The notes: a model not told the origin generated them from the letters alone. DNA of 64,000 nucleotides from Vermamoeba vermiformis (GCA_045837725.1 JBEWZL010000300.1:62001-126000), one strand, 5' to 3'. Numbered from the stretch's first letter, positions 3,314 through 59,819 are shown. Translations and numbers: made by a program.

Positions 3314-4835
3314 TTACAATATAAATTTTGTCTTAGCAGGTAGTGAATACATAACTGGTGTCGTATTTGCGTACATAAAGATTGTTACCCAGATCTCGGC
3401 GGGTACTGATGTTGCATTGCCTAAATTACACGCCAATACAATCAAATCTTTTCGTTTTTCATTTATAAGCGACCTTCTTGTGCCTAATAGCGATTTAAAT
3501 AGTGCCCGAATTTCTTTCGGTTTCCATCTCCATAAATCCGAAGGAAACTGGGTCGAGATCGGATCCATTTTTTTGGTACTTGTACCAAACGTTACTTGGT
3601 GATTTACTCCTCGACTTTCTAATTCTTCAAAATGATATTTAAAAAGGGCGTGGTTGACCAGCTGTTTGATCGTGATTCGTTTTTCCGGCTGGTACTGAAA
3701 TATTTGTTGCAACAACGGAGATCCACTTCTGCGGCAAATCCGCAGAAGTGAAGGCTTTTGGCATTTTGCCAGTAAAATAGTGCCTGTGTTGGACTTTGAG
3801 ACTGTCCATGTCTTCTGGCCTCGGCTGACCAAGGGTAGCAAACACAGAGACATAATTGTGGCCACCCTGTTGAGCTCCAAATAAGGGAATTCCGTCTTTT
3901 AGCATATATGCAAAGATTGCACCGAGTGACCAAACGTCCATCGCTGAACTGACGCTTGGTGGTTGATAGCCGCTGCAAAATTTTTTTTAGATCTCGTTAG
4001 AAACACTTACTAAATGATCATATTAATTACTTACTAGATCGATTCGACTAAAAATTCAATTGACCGAAACATAATTTCATTGTGTTTAACGTGTGGATAT
4101 GTATGTCGTAGTACTAGGTTAGGTTCATAGTAATCGGTAATATGCATTGCGTTGTGGATCAAACCGCATATTTTGACGGTTTGAAGGTCTTTGCTTAGTA
4201 ATATATGATTTGGCTATAATAGTAATGCTGCGTATTAGCGAAGGCCAATAATAATAAAAAATAAACTTACGTTCAAATTCGTATGAACAATTCCCGCCTC
4301 TGCCATTTCATTCACTGCTTGCACTATCTTATAAAATATTCGTATTTTATCTTCGTAACTAATTTTCCGTGCCTCAATCGCTTCAGCTAACGTCCAATCT
4401 GAAATTGAATATTAAATACTTTGTAAAAATAAAAAAAATTATTTAAAAATCATGGACGCACCCATATACTCTGTATTCACTACGAATCCTGTTCCGTTCA
4501 AATCGATGACCGAACAATAAGAGATATCGTTGATTTTGAGAAATTTATCAGATTGTTGTTGTAGTTCAGAGGCGATCAACAATCCTTTGCATATTTGGAC
4601 GGCGTGGTACGAATCAGTTTTCAATGTGGATGGCATTAATTTCAATAGCACTATTTTTCCACTCCATTTGTCAAGGCATTTAAAGAGTCGAGGCTTGTAC
4701 AACTGAAACTGAAAAAAAATTATGTCAGATCAAACTCGAGCTATTTGTTTTACTTACAATATGATTTAATTCCTCGATGACCTTGTATCGGTCGTTTAAA
4801 AATTTATCTTCCAGTTTGCCGTTTGTGGTCCGCAT
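3314..4835 (-). pseudogene. Pseudokinase paralog, copy 2, with an apparent +1 frameshift near 3719 (pseudogene or sequencing error)
   Basis: Similar exon layout and motifs to copy 1 (GIVHTNLN, VKICGL, MDVWSLGAIFAYML). Homology to copy 1 switches frame at TGG ATC T CCG TTG (W-I-[T]-P-L-L vs W-L-P-L-L). Confidence 0.7.
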
Positions 4836-25849: not shown

Positions 25850-28800
25850 TTAATTCTTGGGAGCAACGATAGCTAACAGAGATCCCACATCTACACGATC
25901 CTTAACTTGAACTGTAATTTCAGTAACGCGTCCATCGTGAGGAGCAACGACTTGGACCTAATAAATACAATATTAATATCATATACAAACCTATATTAAT
26001 TCTTTTCTGTAACTTACAGCCATTTTCATAGCAGTCACAATCATCAATGGTTCGCCCTTCTTGACCTCGCTGCCAACACCGACGTACATCACCTCAATAG
26101 CACCAGGAAGAGGGCTCGGCACGTGCTCCGAGTTAGTCAAGTCGGCCTTGCGCGTGTGAACTTTTCCAGCTTGAGCGGCCTTGTCGACCACACGCACCTT
26201 GCGAGTCTGGTCATTGACCAAAAACTCCAAGTTACGAGTGCCGTCGGAGTTCAACGGACCAACACGCTTAAGTTCAACCTTGTGATGCAACTAACATCAA
26301 TTAATTTTAGCATACGTCTGAAAAAACGCGATTTTTCAGATCTGATCCAGATGTGGTACTTACGAAACTGTCAGGACTGCCGAGCTCAGGCAAATCAACG
26401 TGAACGACTTGACCGATGATCATGCCCGAGAAGAACACTTCAGTCGAGAGCCAGCTGACCTTCCAGCCGTACTCCTTCAAGAAGTCCATGTACTCCTCAA
26501 AGACCTTGGGGTAAATGATCGATGTGATCACGTCTTCAGGGGTCATTTTTTGTCCGTACTTCGCTTCAAGTTCCGCAGTCTTGGCATCAAAATCGACCGG
26601 TCTCAACATCGCACCCTAAATTTAAGCCCACGTAAGCTTTTGTGAAAATTTCGAAAGTTTTTTTGGATGGACTTACAGGTCTGGTTGTCAATGGCTGACG
26701 ACCCTTGAGAACAATTGCTTGGACGTCCTTAGGCAAGCCGTGATGAGGGTAGCCCAACATGCCCATGAACAAATCAACGACTGACTCGGGGAACTCAATG
26801 TCTTTGCCCTTTGTCAACACATCCGCAGCAGTCATGTTGCTTTGAATGAGGAACAAGGCCACTTTAACGAACATTAGCACGAGTCTGTTAAGCCATACTT
26901 AGCATTAGACTTACTGTCACCGACGCACTTGCTGCTCGGAGTGACCTTGACGATGTCACCGAACAATCTGTTCACGTCGCGGTACATGTCAACAACGTCG
27001 TCCCAGCGGTCCAACAGACCCAAGTCCTTGCATTGCGCGTACAAGTTGCTGTATTGGCCACCCGGGATTTGATGCTCAAAGACACGAGCAGAACTACATG
27101 TAATTAGTTAACGAGTTCTATTGCCTAATTAGGCTATTACTTACCCGCACTTAAGACCGCTTTCGAAGGGTTGGTATTGAGTGCGCACTTGGGACCAGTA
27201 GACGTCCAATCGTTCCAACGACAAATATGGAATTTTCGGGTCACGTGGACTGCCTTCCAATGCCGCCAAGAACGCGTTCATGGAAGGTTGAGAAGTGGTG
27301 TCGGCCATAGAAGCCATTGCCAAATCTGGAAAGTGTCAGAACGACAGCCTAAAAATATCTAAATTTTTTCACGAGAGACTTACCGACAACATCGCAGCCA
27401 TTGTTAGCCATATTAATTACGGTGGACAAAGCAGCGGATGAAGTATTGTGCGTGTGGAAGTGCAAAGGCAGATCAGTGACGGATCTGATCGCGTTGACGA
27501 AAGGAACGACCATTTGAGGCTTCATAAGACCAGCCATATCCTTAATACCAATAATATGAGCTCCGGCAGCGGTGATTTGTTTGGCCAAATCCTTGAAATA
27601 CTCGAGCGTGTAGATCTTCTCGTTCGGCGACAAGAAATCTCCCGTGAACGAGATACAAACTTCCGCAATTTTGTTGTATTTTCTCACAGTGTCAATGCAC
27701 AGCTGCATTTGCTCGACGGAGTTGAAGCAGTCGAAGATTCTGAACACGTCAATGCCGTTCTTGGCCGCGAGCTCGACGAATCTCTCGTTGACATTGTCAG
27801 GATAGCTCTTGTAACCAACGGCATTGCTGCCACGGATCAACATTTGCAACATAATATTGGGAATGCTATAAAAGGAAATCGCAAATTAGTCCTGTGAAAT
27901 TTCATAATTTTTTCATACGTACTTCTTTCTCAACAAGCGGAGACGTTCCCAAGGGTCCTCGCCCAAAAATCTGTAGCACACGTCGTAGGTAGCGCCACCC
28001 CAAACTTCCAGCGAGAATGCGTCGTGCAACAAGCGAGAGGCTTCGGAGGCAATTCCGAGCAGATCCACTGTTCTAACACGAGTAGCCAACAAGCTCTGAT
28101 GCGCATCACTACAATATTGAACATTAATACTGCACTCATATAGTTATTTTCAACCGTTCTTACCGCATAGTAGTGTCAGTGATCTTAACGGACTGTTGCT
28201 GTCGCAACCACTTTGAGACAGCTTCGGGACCGTGGTTGTCCAAGATGTATTTAGCGTTAGGTCGCTCTTCAGTGGCAACAGGACGAGGCACATTGCTGGT
28301 AAGAGCTTTAGGAGTCAACACACCAGATGGTTGCTGCGAAAATTCGTTTTAGCGGATTCGTCCATGAACTGAAAAATAGGGGATATCTACTTACCTTGCC
28401 GAGGAAAGATGAGTAAGGACTGTTAAGAGTTCTATCAGCAATGAACTTGAGGGTCTTAGATGGAGGTCCCATGCTCTACAAAAGCTAGGGTTAGATCCGA
28501 TCCCAAAAATTCAAATCCAACGAGCTTACTTGATTGCGAGCACGCTTTTGACTTGCTGACAAACCCTTAGGAGTGCTATCAGCACGTGCAATTTCATCAG
28601 TAGACATGAGCTTGTAGAATCCCATGCTGTTGTACTTCTTGTAACGTTGTTGCACGAGGTTTTCAGGGGTCAATTTCAAGAGGTCGTTGGTGGTCGAGGT
28701 GAGGTACTTCTTGATGTCACTCATAATCAATGGACAGTTCTTGGTGACTTCACCATCCTATTGAAATACCACCTTATTAGCTCTTTTTCCAAGCCGGACT

Positions 28801-49687: not shown

Positions 49688-49798
49688 GTTTCGTTATATT
49701 ATGGCTCTGAATAACAATTTGTAAGATCAGAAATGGTTTTGAGCCTTTTTCTATTTTTGGATCGTCTTTTCGAACACTACTAATCACTGAGTACAGAC

Positions 49799-50059
49799 AT
49801 GAAAAAAGCGATGGAGCCAAAACCAAACACGTCATGGACAGCTGAACAAGTGGCAGATTGGGCACAGCACTACTTGACCTTTGACAATGAAGAAGCAGCG
49901 ATTTTAAAGAGAGAAAGAGTTGATGGCCGAGCCCTATATTGTATCCCTAGTTTGAGCGCTCTGTATTATCTCCACGGCATACGTGCTAGCCGTGCAAACA
50001 TTTTGTGGACTGAGATTGAAAAACTGAAGAAGGCTAAGAACAAAGGTAGCAAAACATAA
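49799..50059 (+). CDS. Stand-alone SAM-domain protein
   Basis: SWTAEQVADW..ILKRERVDGRALY..L..HGI..RANILWTEIEKLK matches the SAM consensus. Confidence 0.7.
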   Translation: MKKAMEPKPNTSWTAEQVADWAQHYLTFDNEEAAILKRERVDGRALYCIPSLSALYYLHGIRASRANILWTEIEKLKKAKNKGSKT

Positions 50060-50182: not shown

Positions 50183-53100
50183 TTAAGGCGTTTTTGATTT
50201 TTGCATCATCTTTATTAAGGTTAATCGGGCATTGTTTATACGTGCTATAGTAATATTTAGATAGTAAGATTAATCTCTAAAGAACCAGCGCCATTTAGAT
50301 TGCCAAGGCACCAATCAAGAACAAACTTGAATCCGATCTCCTCGGTCAATCGCGAATCCGCTTGCAGTTCATTTAGTAGCATATTCAACTGTTCGTCTTT
50401 GATATTTTGCTTTGTAGCTAATATTCCTAGAGCTTGCAGCAAAGGAATAACGGCTTTAGTGCTTTTGAATGTTTGCAGCTGATCCTTGATGAATCTGGTG
50501 AATCCGGCTTGGATGAGATTGGTCATATCTTTGTTATGCACGATCATGTCATATGAAAGTCGTTCTAAAACCTTGCAGTATTGCAACGAAGTTTCCAAGT
50601 TATCGCAAGTCAACTCTTTTTCGATCAGCGCTTCAGCGAAGGATGCTTTAAAAATTGACAATTAGACCAATAGTGTACTATATTTATATAAAAATTATTT
50701 ATATTTACCATTAGCCAATGTGCATTGAGCCAGACATGCAGTGACGCTCAACATTAACGACGAATAATTTTCTGACATTAATGGCTGCAATATTATGAAG
50801 GTTTAGTTAACAAATTACATAAAGTATTTGTATATATTCTTACCTTGAACATCGCGGCGTACAACTGCGTGATATCGACAAATTCTTGAAATTGCGCTGC
50901 AAGATCCGCATTAAAAATTTAAGAATTCATTAAGTGAGGATTAAAATACGTACCTAAAGATATCAAATTGCCTATTGTGATGTAAATTTGTTGCACAGTG
51001 AATTCAGGCAAGCGGATCTGATGTGCTTCGGTCAACAACTGCACCACAGTCGTGTAAGTACTTTTTGAGATCAGCTTGTATTTGAGCGGCTCTGCAATTA
51101 ATTATGTATTAGTGAGTACACTGCGATTCATATTATAAATAATCTATATAATACCTTTTGAGGAAAAGATGGCTACTACACGTGAAGCGATAGGAATGTA
51201 CAAGGTTGGCTCACTCGTCGCTAGCTTGATAATTTCCGCGAAAAGAACTTCGGTTTTATCCGCGGGTATATGATCTAGTAACTATTAATAAAAAGAACGA
51301 AAAATATCTAAGGATCTACCGAAAAGTTCGTTCACCGCAAGACATCCGCAATTGAACGCTATGCCAACAAGTCCTTGGAGCTATAAGTAGCATATTATTC
51401 GATACCTTATCATATTTAAGTTCGTTACGTACCGGAGATTTCATCAGATCCACAATGCTGTCAATAATGTCCGACGTCAAAACTGCAACTTGCTCTAATA
51501 ACCATAGATTGTTAATATCGTGTTATTAAATATGAATAGGGGTGACGTACTTCTCTTAATTAAGTTATAAACAATTTGGCCGACGTTGAATTGCAGTTCA
51601 GCAAAGTCAATTCGAAGAAGTTTAGGCAGGAGTTTGACGAGCCCTAGCGCTATTAAATGCTCTTGAACGACTTCTGCAAATTAATTTTTAAGTATTAGCC
51701 GACGCCTATATTCAAATATTAAGTACCTTCGGTCGATAGTCCGACAACGGGTCCCGACACACTGACGAGAAGTGCCGGATCCAGATCCATCGCGAGAAGG
51801 TCCATCAATCTGACTGGTATCTCTTTGCACGCAACAATCTGATTTTTGTATTCATCTGCAAATATTAAGCTTAGAATAAAATTCCAAGAGCTGTTAGAGT
51901 CGTTAATGGCCATACCGTTCGCCAAGAAATTTCCAATGCTGGATGCAGCCATACGAGCCGTTTGAGGATTTTTCGAATTTAAAAGCATCACAAACATATT
52001 TAATGCGTCATCAGCACTAAATATTTTGGCATGCGAACCGTCTGTCAAAAATCAAGATCAGATCTAGGGTGTATGTGATGAACGTACGTGATGAAGTAAT
52101 GCTCGAGTAACTACACGCAACCCAATACTTGATATCTTCGTCTTCAGAATATTCGACTAAATATCGATGCAGATCCACTAATTTTGTGAACGCGACAGTG
52201 TCTTTGGCGACCGGTTTAGAAACCTGCTCGGCCAACGATTGACCCTTAGTTTGCAGCTTACTATAGTACATGTTATTATGTATATGTTTACATTATAATA
52301 TACTATAAGCGATACTTACGTGGGGTAAAAAGCTGAGAAATAAATTGTAGCGAAGCCAAACAGGCGTACTTTTGACCAAAAAAGCGTTGGATTTCTACGA
52401 CAAAGCGATTCAAACCAGTGCAAAAACGCTAATAATAATATAAGAATTAATGTACGAATTAAAAGATGTTAAGGATGATTTACCAGGCACAGAGAAATTT
52501 CCTGCCGGCGAGAGCAGATCCGGTTTTTCGTACAAAATTTGCCATTGAATATCTTCTGAATCGCTCTCACCAAACGGCGTATTAAACAAATCATTCTATT
52601 TCATAGTATTAATTCACTTTAACGTTTTTGGAAGGTATTGGCTGAACTTACGTGACATAAAATAAACTCTTTCGCGTTCAAAATTCCGTCGCAATCTTTG
52701 TCATAAAATTCAAAAATTCTGCGCAAAAACTCGATTGTGAACCACGACAACCGCTTTTCATGAATTGTTAGCTTTACCGTTATTGGTCAAGAATTATTTT
52801 GGATCTTACCACATTATGCACGTCGAAAATGGATTCGGTAGGAGATACTACTATAGCTTCTATAATATTGACTAAATGCAACACTCCGAATTTTGTTATG
52901 ATAGACACCTCCCGCGCACAATCGATCTGAAATCCGAAAAAATTCTGATCAGATCCCGTACGCTTAGAAAAGACTATTCTATATTATAGGTACCTGATAC
53001 TGTAATTTCATCGGGTTCAATATTGAGAATCGATCCTCGGCCGGTTCCAGATCCAATTTTGTACCGACAAGTAAGATCGGGATCTCATGAGGACAAAATC

Positions 53101-54135
53101 TGAAACACCCAAATATCGTTAGATACTTTCATATATGACTATGATATATATAGTATATCCTCTGCATTTGAATATGATTATTACCTGCGAATAAAAGGCA
53201 ACCAAAAGTCTCTGAGTCGTTCAAGTGTTTCCATCTTGGTGACATCGTACGTCAAAATGATGGAGTCACAATCGAGTAGCTGCTCTCTGATCGTGTCGAG
53301 ATACTTTTCTTCCTCGTCGCCGCGTTGGTATTGAGTGTCGTACAGTTTCATGTAGAAATTCGATTTGGTGTTGAATCCGTCAGACAAGCAGCGCAAAAAC
53401 TGCAATATAAATTAGTAGGCTAAGTTTATAAATGTATGCATATATTAGCATTATAATAGTATAAGCACTCATGAGGCTAATTAATTAAAAAAAAGAGGAC
53501 GTACATTTTTTCCTTCGGGATCTAAGCTCTTGATTTTCATTTTCTCCACTTCATCTTGCTCGTTATTTATTGCCTTTGCATATTCTTCTTTAATAGCGTC
53601 AATAAGAGATGTTTTACCGGTTCCCTCTGTTTCGAAACAAAAATTAGATCCGATCCCGTTAGAATAACTTGTACATGTCTAAAAAAAAACTGCTTACCAT
53701 CGCCAATGAATAGAGTATTAATTACGCGGCATTTTAAGCGTACTACGCGATGCATCGTCTTTTTTAACCTCTTCAAGAACATCCTCTTGTAAGACGGTGC
53801 CGCGGGGAGCTTTTCAAGGCCAACAGATTCCCAAATGCTACGAGCCAATGGTATATTAAAATATGGCTATCATGAATATAATAACGAAAACTTAAAATGA
53901 ATTATTGTACTGAAAAAATGTACCAGATGCAGCTTTCATAAATAAATCAAGTTTAAGATCCAGAAGATCGGATATATAAATCGGCTTACTCTACGTAATG
54001 GCGCTTCCAAATATCTTCGTTTGAAGCCAGCTCGTTGAACTCTTTGCTAACCAAAGCTGCACTTGCAAGATCGACCGGCTGTAAGAAGCTCAAACAAAGC
54101 TTCTTGGTCTCCGCTACCAGTCCTTGCCAAGCCAT
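50183..54135 (-). CDS. F-box + Miro-like small GTPase + EF-hand + ARM-repeat protein (paralog A; no SPRY or TM). The 3' end is 50183 or 50257.
   Basis: F-box WQGLVAETKKLCLSFLQPVDLASAALVSKEFNELASNEDIWK; P-loop GDEGTGKTS; VGTKLD; RRIFEFYDKDCDGILNAKE; FLHWF..W..VRLFGF; ARM-like repeats. Confidence 0.8.
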
Positions 54136-54421
54136 TATTGCGGCGTTCGTTATGTTAGTTGAAAGAAACTGAGCTAACTTTTTAAAAACTCAAAATTTTC
54201 TGATTTAATCTGGCGGGACTTGGAAAGCGGGTACGAACGTTCCATCAAGCAAGAAAATTTGAGGAATAGATTTACGGGTACGAATTGTAATATAGATCAT
54301 AACAAATAGGTATTAACGGATTAAAATTAGCGCTTACCTCGGATGCGATCTCAAAGTTACCTTAATCAGCCAGATCGGAGTACTTTTTGTACGAAAAATT
54401 TATCTATGCATATTTGTAATG

Positions 54422-57400
54422 TTATTTCGTCGATTTTTTGCGCAATAAGTAGGCGGCCACAAAAGCAGCAGTAGCACCAATCAAGACAGCACCACCAACC
54501 GCAACCTTTGTAGTAGTCGTCAGACCACTCGATCCGAGCACGCGAGCATAAGGTTTGAAGCCTCCAGTCAATGCATGTGCGAAGGGCTCTGCACCAAAGT
54601 TGAATTTGACCTGCTGATTGTTGGCCATAGTCAAAGCAGGGAACAAGCCATCGCTCGCCACTACGTTCTCAAATGCCACGCCTTGTTGCACCCCGTTCAG
54701 TGAAAACAAGATCTGACCCTTGTCGAGATCCAAATAGCACCCTACATATTCATAAATTAGCTCACGATCGACCGGTTAAAAATGAACGGCAGATCAAAGC
54801 TCGAAAGTTCGTCATTATGTCACGCTAGAGCTGAACGTCAATTTACCTAAAACATCACCGGCCTTCCATTTACCACTGCCGTAGACCTTGCCTCCTCCGT
54901 GCCATGCTTTGTTTCTGTTCAGATCCGCTGCATATGAAAAGTCATCATCGCCAACTCCGGTACCTTCATCAGGGCTGCAAGCACGTGTTAGTACTACAAA
55001 TACAAAGGTTGCACAAGAGGCTTACTTGACACTTGTTTTGAGTGTTTGGTGCGTCGCCCAACCGATTTGCATGATGCCGTCAGTGAACAGCTTAACTTCA
55101 TAGTACCACTTTCCTAATTTGGAATTAAGAGACGGTTAGCCACAAGACCCAACGTTTGATATAAAAAGATAGTATTTGGTACCTTTAGTGACTGGTACAT
55201 TTGCAGCGACAGTTTCAAAGGTCTCAATGTCGAGTCGTGCGGACAATCTGTCGTGCGAGATTTTGATCGCTTTTGTCTTGAACTCGTCGGTCAAGTACAC
55301 ACCCTTTGGCGTGACTTTTGGTTTACCTAATCAGGAAAGGTTCATAAGCATTAATATTCTCCGAATTTAAATAATTATTGGTGTTCGTACCAGTGCCGTC
55401 GACGTTGCCCATGCACCATTCAAGCACGAATTTGAAGTCGATTTCTTTCATCAAACGCTTGTTGTTGAGTAACTCATTGAAGATCGCGTTCAACTCTTCG
55501 TCTTTGACATTTTGTTTGGTGGCAAGTATGCCGAGTGCGTCCAACAGCGGAATAACTGCTTTGGTGCTCTTGAACGCTTTCAACTGATTCTTGATGAACT
55601 TGATGAACCCTGCATCGATCAAATTTGTCATGTCTTTGTTGTACATCACCAAGTCATAGGCGAGTCCTTCAACGACTTTAAGGTACTGCAAAGACACTGT
55701 TTGCGTCTTGCGCGAAGTCAATTCTTTTTCGAACACTTTGATCAGGGCTTCGGCAAACGAGGCTATGCAAACCAACAATGTAAGATTAAATGCAAAAAAA
55801 ATCATCAGGCATGACTCTTACGTTTAACAGTGGATACTTCAGTGAGGCAAGCAGCAATGTCAGGAATCAAGGGCAAGTATGTTTGAGGCGAGCTCATCGG
55901 CTACGAAGGAAATTTATTAGTCATATGTTAAGTAGAATATTTAAGTCTCGCTGAGGACTAAAAACTTACCGTCAATATGGCAGTGAACAAGGCTTGAATG
56001 TCAACAACTTCGAGGAATTTTTCTGATGAGACAAAGAGTCAGAAAACATTCCTATTGATGCCTATGATATGAACGTACCTGACTTGACTAAATTAACAAT
56101 AGCAATGTAAGTCTGTTGCAAGCTGGAAGCTGGGCATTTTGACGCAGGACAGTCTTTCAACATGCGAAGGAACGCGCTGTAACTCTTTTTCTCGATAATT
56201 TTTTCTCGCAGCGATTCTAATTCGAGCAATGTAAGTACCTCTATAATCTGATTGAAGAATATGCCACTTACCATATTTGGTAAACACGGACAGCGAGATC
56301 GTTGCGGGATGATGGAACTTGTACGGTTCGCTCGTTGATAGGTTAATGATTTCATCAATCAGCGGCATGTTTCTTTCCGTATTTAGAATGTCTGCAAGAA
56401 ATGTGAGGAAAAAGTTCGAGGAATTTATTTCATGAAGATGCAGCGTACCAAATAAGTCAGGATAAGTTACTGCAAGACCACCGCAATGAAGTCCTGTTTC
56501 GACAATTCCTTGCAACTATGAAGAAATTAATATATAACATCTATTATATAGTTCGTATTCACGTGGACTTACTTTGGACTTCATTAAGTAGATTATACTG
56601 TCGATCATTTCTTCGGTTAAAATTTCCACTCTTCGTTCTGGAAATAAAAGTTAATTTATATGCCTAATATTACTACTATTATCGATTTTACCATTGTTTA
56701 TCAAGTTATAAACGATTTGTCCAGTGTTGTACTGAAGTTCGGCGAATTCAATGTGCAGCAGTTTAGGGATGAGTTTGTCGAAGCCGCTATTAACAAGCTG
56801 CTCCTGAACAGCCTCTGCGAATATATGCATTAGTACGTCTTGCCATCTATATTAATAGAAGTAATACCTTCGTTCGATAATCCTACGAGAGGTCGAGACA
56901 CACTGACGAGAAGTGCCGGATCCAGATCCATCGCGAGAAGTTCCATCAACCTTTCTGCGATCTCCTTGCATGCGACAATTTGTGGTCTATATACGGCTGC
57001 AATAACAAAGTGAATTAATACATAAGTCCGTATTATGACCGCAAACGTACTGTCATCGATGAAATCTCCAATGCTCATGGACGCCATGCGAGCTGTGTGC
57101 GGGTTCTTTGCATGCAGCAATGTGACGAACACATCCAACGCATTTTCACTGTTCATAATAAGATCACGCGAGTCCGCTGCAAAAAAAAAAAAGCGTCAGC
57201 ATGAAGCTCACAAAAAAAAAAGATATCCCGTGGAACAAAAAAATTCGAAAGTCAAAAGTAACGTACGTGAAGTAGTAACACCAGCATAACTACAAGCGAC
57301 CCAATACTTGACGTCTTCATCATCACTCTTCTCCGTCAAAAATCGACGCATGTCCGACAGCAAAGTCACCGCGCGAGGTCCCTTGGCGACTGGTTGCGCC

Positions 57401-59457
57401 AACTTTTGCTCCATTGTTTGACCACTCAGTTGCAAGTTACTATAGGCCGTGCATTAGACCAACAAGCTTTGTAAAAATTTCATGCAATGAACTTACGTGG
57501 GGTATAAAGAAGTATAATAGATTGAATGGAAACCGAAGGTTCGCAATGTATTCCAAACAAAGTTCAAGTTGTAACTACCAACTGGAATTTCAAACCAATA
57601 GATGAAAGCTAAATACGCCGTTAGTAATTACTATTATATTTATATTTCAATATTTACCAGGCCATGAGATTCTGCCGTCAGCTTGGAGCAGATCCGGTCT
57701 TCCCGCTGAAATTTCGTTTTGTAGAACTGCGTGGTAACTCACGTCGTGCTCAGTATTGCACAATTCATTCTATATATAGTATTATTATCATATTCCGAAC
57801 CACAAAAATTTTGACTGCTTACGTAACACACGACAAATTCTTCAGCGTTCAAAAATCCATCGCCGTCTTTATCGTAAAACTCGAATATTCTGTGAACGAA
57901 CTCCTCTACGAATGGCATGTAGTGCTAAAAAATGATAAATTATTTTCATGAACGGTGATCATATCGACGGGTGGAATTTCTTACGCGAATGTTGATGTCA
58001 AAGATGGTGATCATAGGACAGACTACTATAGCATCCACGAGATCAAACACGTTCAAACAGCCTGTTTCGAACTTAGGCGAGCACTCTGTCGTGCCTTCCA
58101 ACTACAAACAAGAATTAATTCGAGTTGAGTTCACAGGTGCACCTTTCGCTAGATCTAGCAGCATTAAAATAATATGTAGCTCGCGGCACTTACGTTGTAT
58201 TGCGTTTTAATGGCATTGAGAATGTCATTGACTTCTTGTGGCGGGTTTTGACGGCCACGCAGATCTGATTTTGTGCCGACTGCCAATAACGGGATCTCAC
58301 GAGGACAAAATCTGAAACACCCAAATATCGTTAGATACTATAATATATAATACTAGCAAATATAATATGCTCTTTGCAAATGCAACTGATTATTACCTGC
58401 GAATAAAAGGCAACCAAAAGTCTCTGAGTCGTTCAAGTGTTTCCATCTTGGTGACATCGTACGTCAAGATGATGGAGTCACAATCGAGTAGCTGCTCTCT
58501 GATCGTGTCGAGATACTTTTCTTCCTCGTCGCCGCGTTGGTATTGAGTGTCGTACAGTTTCATGTAGAAATTCGATTTGGTGTTAATGCCGGCAGAAATA
58601 GACTTCTTAAACTATCATAAAAAATAGTCAGTTAACTCACAAATATTATTGATATTATTAAATGCTTATTAGCGAATTATACTAGAATTTTTAGTTTTTT
58701 TCTTACGGTAATTCGTTCAGGATCCAAGCTTTGAATTCGAATTTTTTCCTGCTTGCTTTGTGATTGAACGACTGATTTAGTAAATCCTTCGCGAATTCCA
58801 TCAATAAGCGTCGTTTTGCCAGTTTGTTCTAGAACGTAAAAATTAATTAGAGCATTATCAGAGGAAAATTATTATTAATAATAATATTCTTACCATCACC
58901 GACAATAAGGGTGTTAATTACGCGGCATTTAAATCGAACAACACGATAAGCTGTCTTTTTTAACCTCTTCAAGAACATTTTCTTGTAAGACGGCTCAGCT
59001 GGAAACTTCTCGAGGCCAGCTGTCTCCCAAACACTAGAAATATTATGCATAAATATATATTATTTTTAATATCTGAAAATATCCACAAAATTCCAGAAAA
59101 AGTGTCGACCATGACGTCACAACCGAATCCGCGCGTTCAAAATTTACAAAATCACTTGTAAAATTTATGAATACGACCAATTCATCCAATTAATTGCTTT
59201 TTATTATAAAGAAGATATTTGAATTAAGAAAAAAATCGGATGTAATTGATATTTAATTGAGAAAGAGCTGTGAATGCATATACTTACTGCTTATAATGTT
59301 GTTTCCATAATTCCTCGTCTGAAGCAAGCTCATTGAACTCTTTGCTCACGGATGCTGCTTTGACAAGGTAGATCGGCTCCAGAAAATTGAAGCAGAACTT
59401 CTTCAAGTCAATAGGCAACGACTGCCACGTTATTTCGGTCTCTTGTGTTTGTTCCAT
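54422..59457 (-). CDS. F-box + Miro-like GTPase + EF-hand + ARM + SPRY + C-terminal tail-anchor protein (paralog B)
   Basis: F-box WQSLPIDLKKFCFNFL..VSKEFNELASDEELWK; GDEQTGKTT; VGTKSD; ECSPK; RIFEFYDKDGDGFLNAEE; SPRY GKWYYEV..MQIGWAT..GVGDDDFSY..WKAGDVLGCYLDLD..FPAL..FNFG..PF; TM VAVGGAVLIGATAAFVAAYLL followed by RKKSTK*. Confidence 0.85.
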
Positions 59458-59819
59458 TAGATAATATTAAGAACAAATCTTTCTGCTGTGAACTCACAAC
59501 AAAAACGTGCCCTGCGCATCCGCGGTGAGTTTTCTTGGTCAGAAACAAACTTAATAGCTCCTATATTACTCATATGAAGGAAATCATAAGGGTAAGCACT
59601 ATCTTTAATTGCATTAATGAGACTACAAGGACACAAGGAAACGAATCTGGTTCACAGCGTATTCCACGGATGTACTTTCATATAAGAACGTTAGCATATT
59701 AAAGTTTAACTTAAGGTTAAGTAATTTTACCGGATTTACGGGCTGTATGCTGACATACGGCAGTTAAAACCGCATGCGAACCAAAAATAGGATCGGAGAT
59801 GCAGCTCGAGATTGAGCAA

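Follow-up and report, generated by a model that had tools for sequence, protein, structure and literature searches.

A predicted tail-anchored F-box protein of Vermamoeba vermiformis that combines a Miro-like GTPase/EF-hand module with an ARM-like region and a SPRY domain

Introduction

The Miro/Gem1 proteins begin with an atypical GTPase, have a canonical EF-hand and a helical region after it, and end in a C-terminal tail anchor. The same order of elements was recognized in the predicted product of a gene on the minus strand (positions 59457-54422) of a 64,000-nt stretch of Vermamoeba vermiformis DNA (GCA_045837725.1 JBEWZL010000300.1:62001-126000), and this gene is the subject of the present analysis. 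The whole analyzed stretch is referred to below as the window. In contrast to Miro/Gem1, the window protein has only the first half of a Miro and possesses, in addition, an F-box, an armadillo (ARM)-like region and a SPRY domain.

Several other described proteins share a part of this composition. FBXO45 is a small soluble protein that is not known to have a GTPase, EF-hand, ARM region or membrane anchor. The feature that FBXO45/FSN-1 have in common with the window protein is the presence of an F-box and a substrate-binding SPRY domain in one protein (for FBXO45, see PMC4359269), whereas the SPRY domain of the window protein is closest to the ryanodine-receptor, DDX1 and ASH2L types. In RhoBTB, an atypical Ras-superfamily domain and a cullin-RING adaptor module are likewise joined in one chain; RhoBTB3, described from the Golgi, carries its Rho-like domain together with a Cul3 adaptor (PMC3812982). 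The window protein differs in that its adaptor is an F-box, i.e., the Cul1 route, and in that its GTPase is Miro-like and not Rho-like. Mitochondria-associated F-box proteins are also known in yeast (Mdm30 and Mfb1). FBXL4 has leucine-rich repeats and an N-terminal targeting region and is devoid of a GTPase, an EF-hand, a SPRY domain and a C-terminal anchor. The Skp1-Cul1-F-box (SCF) ligase with FBXL4 acts on the mitochondrial outer membrane (PMC10308361), and the window protein may be an F-box receptor at the same location.

All the modules of the window protein are known singly; their combination was not found in other proteins or in the literature searched. With modest confidence, we lean towards the reading that the locus encodes a tail-anchored F-box protein acting as a GTP- and Ca2+-responsive SCF substrate receptor on mitochondria and/or peroxisomes. 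The evidence for the gene, its domains and its distribution is presented first, and this function is then weighed against its alternatives.

Gene structure and transcript evidence

The window has a G+C content of about 38% and many short introns, and it is eukaryotic. The exon model was derived from the minus-strand sequence and its stop-to-stop frames and was then compared with transcript-derived relatives. It consists of 24 exons and 23 introns, all of which have GT-AG borders. The introns are 49-254 nt long and amount to about 1.7 kb in total, and the coding sequence of 3333 nt, including the stop codon, corresponds to a product of 1110 amino acids (aa). Both the ATG at 59457 and the stop codon at 54424-54422 agree with the limits given in an earlier reading of the window, which had been made from the sequence alone (hereafter, the sequence-only reading) and had proposed that everything from the F-box to the tail anchor belongs to one gene and one transcript.

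When 5.8 billion protein clusters were queried with the largest exon (123 aa), three of the 262 candidates matched: P0001, an open reading frame (ORF) of 952 aa from a Trinity transcript; P0002, 1094 aa on a single 3346-nt contig; and P0003, 880 aa, which is a second isoform or a paralogue. Names of the type "TRINITY_DN..." are those of de novo transcriptome assemblies. The model aligns with P0002 from end to end with only tiny indels (939 of 1093 residues identical, 85.9%), with P0001 from the GTPase to the C-terminus (857 of 950, 90.2%) and with P0003 at a lower level of identity (517 of 873, 59.2%). In P0002, the F-box, Ras, EF-hand and SPRY domains and the terminal hydrophobic helix are all found in one ORF. 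Since the contig of P0002 is barely longer than its coding sequence, while the window gene contains about 1.7 kb of introns, P0002 must originate from spliced RNA, unless the gene of the relative is intronless. Separately, the first ~20 residues of P0003 match an out-of-frame reading of the GTPase exon, which suggests a retained intron or a misassembly at its N-terminus.

A further source of evidence is run X5, which comprises contigs of a related organism, guessed to be RNA and 95-99% identical to the window, that were aligned to positions 53900-59700. Among the joints listed, those of X5 coincide with 16 of the 23 introns, being exact at introns 1, 2, 6-10, 14-16, 19, 20 and 23 and lying within 1-2 letters at introns 3, 4 and 18; four further joints stand outside this list. 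One contig of 681 nt joins exon 1, which carries the F-box, to exon 4 of the GTPase, and another of 578 nt joins exon 20 of the ARM region to exon 21, leading into the SPRY domain. The intron that the sequence-only reading had predicted at the ARM-SPRY border (~55327-55391) corresponds to intron 20 (55390-55327) and is seen as a joint in the spliced contig. At intron 21, a loose end of 15 letters continues in the next exon, as judged by eye. The transcript evidence extends in the 5' direction to 59438 at most, and P0002 is incomplete at its N-terminus. In the course of model building, a version with an intron 16 of only 31 nt and a product of 1118 aa was dropped, as the alignment with P0001 and P0002 favours an intron of 55 nt with exon 17 at 56216-56079; the 55-nt intron was confirmed by a joint in the X5 contigs.

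These data also bear on the explanation that the gene is an annotation artefact, in which two or more neighbouring genes have been read as one. In favour of such an artefact, no single X5 contig covers the whole gene within 53900-59700. It is already contradicted by P0002, in which all the domains and the terminal helix share one ORF on one contig, by P0001, which runs from the GTPase to the C-terminus, and by the X5 contigs that bridge the F-box/GTPase and ARM/SPRY borders, and we regard its probability as negligible. The single gene and single transcript of the sequence-only reading are supported by P0002 and by the X5 contigs.

In the frame of the model, 36 of the 38 listed differences between X5 and the window are synonymous (five more differences stand outside this list), and this indicates purifying selection along the gene.

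F-box, GTPase and EF-hand module

On exon 1, Pfam analysis revealed an F-box (PF00646; E 3e-9, 36.9 bits, cut-off 20.5), and the F-box-like family PF12937 matched there as well (E 5.6e-8, 32.9 bits, cut-off 24.3). The N-terminal F-box noticed in the sequence-only reading is therefore above the Pfam cut-off in the window itself, and it is also present in P0002. The Pfam matches of P0002 are SPRY (4.3e-24), EF-hand_1 (1.6e-7), Ras (PF00071; 1.1e-6), F-box (1.6e-6) and Roc (4.9e-4). No BTB family was matched on P0002, and on exon 1 only BACK_BPM_SPOP was obtained, with an E of 0.21.

The GTPase domain of the 1110-aa model has an intact P-loop, GDEQTGKT, at aa 102, the G4 motif TKSD at aa 229 and a G5-like ECSPK at aa 261. 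Together with the degenerate G3 (YDTQ), these are the motifs on which the sequence-only reading had based its Ras-like GTPase, and all the sequence features that it listed were found where it had placed them. The Ras match on exon 4 alone reached an E of only 0.014. Directly after this first GTPase, as in Miro, a canonical EF-hand is located: exon 7 matches EF-hand_1 (PF00036; E 1.4e-7, 31 bits, cut-off 25.4), and in its 12-residue loop, DKDGDGFLNAEE at aa 312, positions 1, 3, 5, 9 and 12 are occupied by acidic or amide residues. A stretch rich in W and F, with LRTFGF, is present after the loop.

Apart from the SPRY relatives, the best relative of P0002 among the solved structures is human Miro1 (E 9.7e-13, 223 residues). 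The similarity forms one HMMER stretch, in which residues 158-380 of P0002 are aligned with chain residues 77-296, from the GTPase core through the EF-hand and into the following helices; the next-best GTPase, RhoA, was matched with an E of 7e-7 over 93 residues. In a language-model feature search with residues 75-395, Miro clusters occupied nine of the ten rows shown (scores 0.90-0.93; the tool is uncalibrated for protein parts). According to these comparisons, the GTPase/EF-hand module most probably derives from the first half of a Miro. On P0002 and the exons, Pfam detected one Ras and one EF-hand stretch only, and neither the second EF-hand pair nor the C-terminal GTPase of Miro was found. 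Because these parts are missing, we consider the protein to be a chimera and not a member of the Miro family.

The sequence-only reading had identified this part as the Miro N-GTPase/EF-hand 1 region. The resemblance to Miro stands, as the module is closest to Miro in both the structure and the feature searches; the identification does not extend to the Miro-specific EF_assoc models, to which we return below. The same reading held that the second half of Miro had been replaced. The second EF-hand pair and the C-terminal GTPase are absent, and aa ~410-1055 are taken up by the ARM-like and SPRY regions; replacement is only one of the possible histories.

ARM-like region

For residues ~410-885, no Arm, HEAT or other Pfam family gave a significant match, and the only one obtained, ARM_PUB, was below the cut-off (E 0.03-0.07). 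In an AlphaFold2 model calculated from the three-sequence alignment, residues 500-760 form stacked helix pairs, in which most of the 10-residue blocks have a predicted local distance difference test score (pLDDT) of 60-86; only this helical middle was used, and the GTPase and SPRY parts of the model were left uninterpreted. Foldseek matched the middle region with the designed ARM protein 4rv1 (E 2e-8, template modelling score 0.68 on the target, at moderate model confidence there) and further with Vac8, importin-alpha and beta-catenin. An atlas search of the ARM region pointed to ARM/HEAT-type families, whose scores of 0.81-0.83 serve as leads only. It is reasonable to regard the middle region as an ARM-like solenoid, as judged from the model, with no specific family assigned. 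The ARM-like repeats postulated from the sequence alone are consistent with the helix pairs of this model and with its Foldseek matches to ARM proteins.

SPRY domain and predicted membrane anchor

The SPRY domain (PF00622) is spread over exons 22-24, where it was matched with E values of 4.5e-5, 0.023 and 9.1e-10 at profile positions 1-25, 32-68 and 71-120, respectively; the match on exon 24 is above the Pfam cut-off. In P0002, the domain is of full length (profile positions 1-120 of 121). Its relatives among the solved structures include the SPRY2 domain of the ryanodine receptor, DDX1, ASH2L and RanBP9/10.

The strongest 19-residue Kyte-Doolittle window (aa 1086-1104, mean 2.05) lies six residues from the C-terminus. 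The next one (aa 273-291, score 1.98) is located at the end of the GTPase domain and is read as the buried core of this domain and not as a membrane segment. The protein accordingly ends in a single hydrophobic helix followed by the tail RKKSTK with a net charge of +4, and the SPRY domain, the terminal transmembrane helix and the basic tail of the sequence-only reading were all recovered. The helix is kept in P0002 and in P0005, a genomic fragment.

In mammalian tail-anchored proteins, the mean tail charge was reported to rise from 0.21 in those of the endoplasmic reticulum (ER) to 1.12 in mitochondrial ones, 2.5 in those that mitochondria and peroxisomes share and 6.03 in peroxisomal ones; the charge can override a hydrophobic helix, and a higher charge redirects proteins away from the ER (Costello et al., PMC5450235). 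By these rules, a tail of +4 points away from the ER, towards mitochondria and/or peroxisomes. The protein could instead be an SCF receptor anchored in the ER, the nuclear envelope or another endomembrane, and its resemblance to Miro could be a mere reuse of a GTPase/EF-hand cassette. With its hydrophobicity of 2.05, the helix exceeds the value of 1.75 on the grand average of hydropathy scale that separates yeast ER tail-anchored proteins (PMC5450235), and the anchor may stem from a SPRY-plus-helix cassette (see below) and not from Miro; both points fit such a location. Its tail charge, on the other hand, is far from the mammalian ER mean, and a higher charge redirects proteins away from the ER, as noted above; we therefore consider an endomembrane location unlikely.

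Distribution and origin

With the ARM region of P0002, only P0001-P0003 were found among 8000 scored candidates, and a word-based search with the GTPase/EF region gave only members of the family (2 of 3878 candidates). An HMMER scan of 1.84 billion representatives resulted in 4447 matches at E up to 0.001. Among the best 150 of them, P0003 alone was matched over its length (203-1057); P0005 and P0023 stem from near-identical genomic copies, of which they are short pieces translated across introns, and the remaining 147 have their best stretch within residues 815-1094, i.e., in the SPRY part. Two scans of metagenome contigs found no related locus, and the literature searched, judged from titles and the beginnings of abstracts, contained no description of the architecture. 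Within reach of these searches, the domain combination is confined to this organism and its close relatives. The sequence-only reading had known of no described protein with this architecture, and the protein, metagenome and literature searches agree with it in that the architecture is neither widespread nor annotated.

Two short proteins from other organisms, P0009 (276 aa) and P0011 (279 aa), resemble the C-terminal 220-250 residues, with 40-42% identity. They share with the window protein the linker that precedes SPRY, SPRY itself and, at the C-terminus, a hydrophobic helix whose end is basic, and they differ in the absence of the F-box, the GTPase and the ARM region. Unless they are fragments, a SPRY-plus-anchor cassette would exist on its own, and the anchor may have come with this cassette and not from Miro. 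Four parts appear to have been shuffled together in the gene: an F-box, the first half of a Miro, an ARM region and a SPRY domain with its anchor.

A paralogue is located directly downstream of the gene, about 290 nt away on the same strand (approximate limits in Table 1), and carries an F-box, a P-loop GTPase, an EF-hand and an ARM-like region. Positions 58260-58559 of the gene are 90% identical to 53048-53347 of the paralogue, while the other shared tracts are 70-79% identical, suggesting gene conversion between the tandem copies.

Gene conversion, the very narrow distribution and the variable domain content of the family members would all be compatible with a young and effectively neutral product of exon shuffling that has no specific function. 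The sequence comparisons argue against this: nearly all the listed differences from the related organism are synonymous, as described above, the relatives are 86-90% identical along the whole length with all motifs kept, and they transcribe and splice the gene. Neutrality is, in our opinion, very improbable.

Proposed function

From the domain content of the gene we infer Skp1 binding, the identity of the membrane, the regulation and the substrates as follows. By means of its tail anchor, the protein would be inserted after translation into the membrane of an organelle, on the cytosolic side, and mitochondria and/or peroxisomes appear likelier than the ER. The F-box would recruit Skp1-Cul1-Rbx1, and substrates situated on this membrane or close to it would be bound by the ARM and SPRY surfaces and ubiquitylated. 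The Miro-like GTPase/EF-hand module may provide a switch that depends on nucleotide and Ca2+, or else an additional docking site.

F-box proteins that act outside SCF complexes also exist. The window protein could likewise work chiefly as an adaptor on an organelle, in the manner of Miro, and use its ELM1-type region, for instance, in motility, in tethering or in the docking of clients; the F-box would then act in a non-SCF Skp1 complex or in the turnover of the protein itself. The retention of both the Miro-like GTPase/EF-hand region and a tail anchor is consistent with such a role; Vac8, one of the Foldseek matches, is an ARM membrane adaptor, and the clients of Miro bind a hydrophobic pocket in ELM1 (bioRxiv 10.1101/2023.07.25.550462). 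However, the F-box exceeds the Pfam cut-offs and has been retained in both P0002 and the paralogue, and SPRY and ARM domains are typical substrate-binding modules of ubiquitin-ligase receptors. We therefore treat the adaptor role as a less likely alternative to the SCF substrate receptor.

The binding of Miro clients to the ELM1 pocket also suggests a more specific form of the SCF receptor, namely that the protein captures Miro-type clients for ubiquitylation. In such a "Miro mimic" ligase, the first GTPase and the ELM1-type region would capture carriers of Miro-binding motifs on the same organelle surface and pass them to SCF in a Ca2+- and GTP-dependent manner. This elaboration seems improbable to us. 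If true, it would represent a new switchable control of organelle motility, contacts or turnover, and a Cul1 counterpart of RhoBTB-Cul3.

Several observations weigh against a GTP- and Ca2+-responsive SCF receptor on mitochondria and/or peroxisomes. With regard to the switch, no DxxG is present at the expected G3 site of the GTPase, where YDTQ is found instead, and a long insert follows helix 1, in the switch I region; these two features make normal GTPase cycling doubtful, and the domain may bind nucleotide without cycling or may be a pseudo-GTPase. With regard to the Miro origin, the families EF_assoc_1 and EF_assoc_2, which are specific to Miro, gave no Pfam match on P0002 at E up to 1, and searches of the solved structures with single exons, which are very short queries, did not recover Miro: exon 4 gave EhRabX3 with an E of 0.054, exon 9 gave chance matches and exon 6 gave none. 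The AlphaFold2 model is poor overall, with a mean pLDDT of 45.4.

The membrane tail is open to similar objections. The tail-charge rules come from mammals and yeast and are assumed to transfer to this lineage. The last ~12 residues of P0001 differ from those of the window protein and of P0002, and its C-terminus is non-basic. P0003 is without an anchor. In the paralogue, tblastn found no SPRY domain or transmembrane helix; its frame ends just after the ARM region, and the ORF 50257-50661 ends in a stop codon. The lack of an anchor in P0003, and of SPRY and anchor in the paralogue, implies that membrane attachment is not essential to the family.

The last point concerns expression. From the raw RNA runs X21-X23, which are labelled as the species of the window, only 17, 13 and 35 reads align, all of them partially and with 95-99% identity, so the transcript evidence comes from relatives and not from the exact allele of the window. 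The species label of these runs seems to cover diverged strains or species. Some loose ends of their reads (55970-56026 and others) resemble a P0001-type orthologue spliced at the exon 17/18 border.

The interest of the SCF receptor reading lies in the union of a Miro-type GTPase/Ca2+ sensor and a cullin-ligase adaptor in one predicted membrane-anchored chain. If it is true, the protein would be an example from nature of ubiquitylation gated by nucleotide and calcium on the surface of an organelle, and a second, independent fusion of a Ras-superfamily domain with a cullin adaptor after RhoBTB. The family provides a built-in comparison of forms that are anchored with SPRY, soluble with SPRY (P0003) and soluble without SPRY (the tandem paralogue). 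The reach of the finding is narrowed by the confinement of the family to a single, little-studied lineage.

Feature coordinates and neighbouring genes

The positions of the gene, its parts and its tandem copy are collected in Table 1.

Table 1. Features of the F-box gene and its tandem paralogue, in positions counted from the first letter of the window.
Feature	Position	Strand	Basis or remark
Whole gene	54422..59457	-	Coordinate model; collinear with P0002 and P0001; X5 joints at 16 of 23 introns
Exon 1: start codon and F-box (aa 11-55)	59288..59457	-	PF00646, PF12937
Ras-like GTPase, exons 2-6, about aa 95-294	57985..58921	-	Motifs; PF00071 on P0002; similarity to human Miro1
Exon 7: canonical EF-hand; 12-residue Ca2+ loop at 57873-57838	57823..57924	-	PF00036, motif
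Exons 8-9: helical region after the EF-hand, at the position of the hidden EF-hand/ligand-mimic part of Miro ELM1	57497..57769	-	HMMER stretch between P0002 and Miro1
Exons 10-20: all-helical armadillo-like solenoid of about 470 aa (from model)	55391..57439	-	AlphaFold2 model, Foldseek
SPRY, exons 22-24, about aa 934-1055	54590..55110	-	Pfam on exons 22-24 and on P0002
Predicted transmembrane helix, aa 1086-1104	54443..54499	-	Kyte-Doolittle; conserved in P0002 and fragment P0005
Six-residue basic tail RKKSTK, net +4	54425..54442	-	Followed by stop 54424-54422; P0002 ends in HKKSSK
Tandem paralogue	50257..54135	-	tblastn, 28-73% identity by segment
300-nt tract, 90% identical to 53048-53347 in the paralogue	58260..58559		End of exon 4, intron 4, start of exon 5

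Three other parts of the window attracted attention. A frame on the plus strand (49784-50059) is convergent with the end of the paralogue, and a possible SAM-type domain was noticed in it by eye. Two neighbouring long frames on the minus strand, 1518-2285 and 3314-3898, resemble each other in their C-terminal halves and may be a further pair of tandem genes, possibly kinase-like. Finally, a long frame on the minus strand (27349-27885) lies in a stretch of raised G+C content (0.45-0.47), and we take it to resemble the carboxyltransferase part of pyruvate carboxylase.

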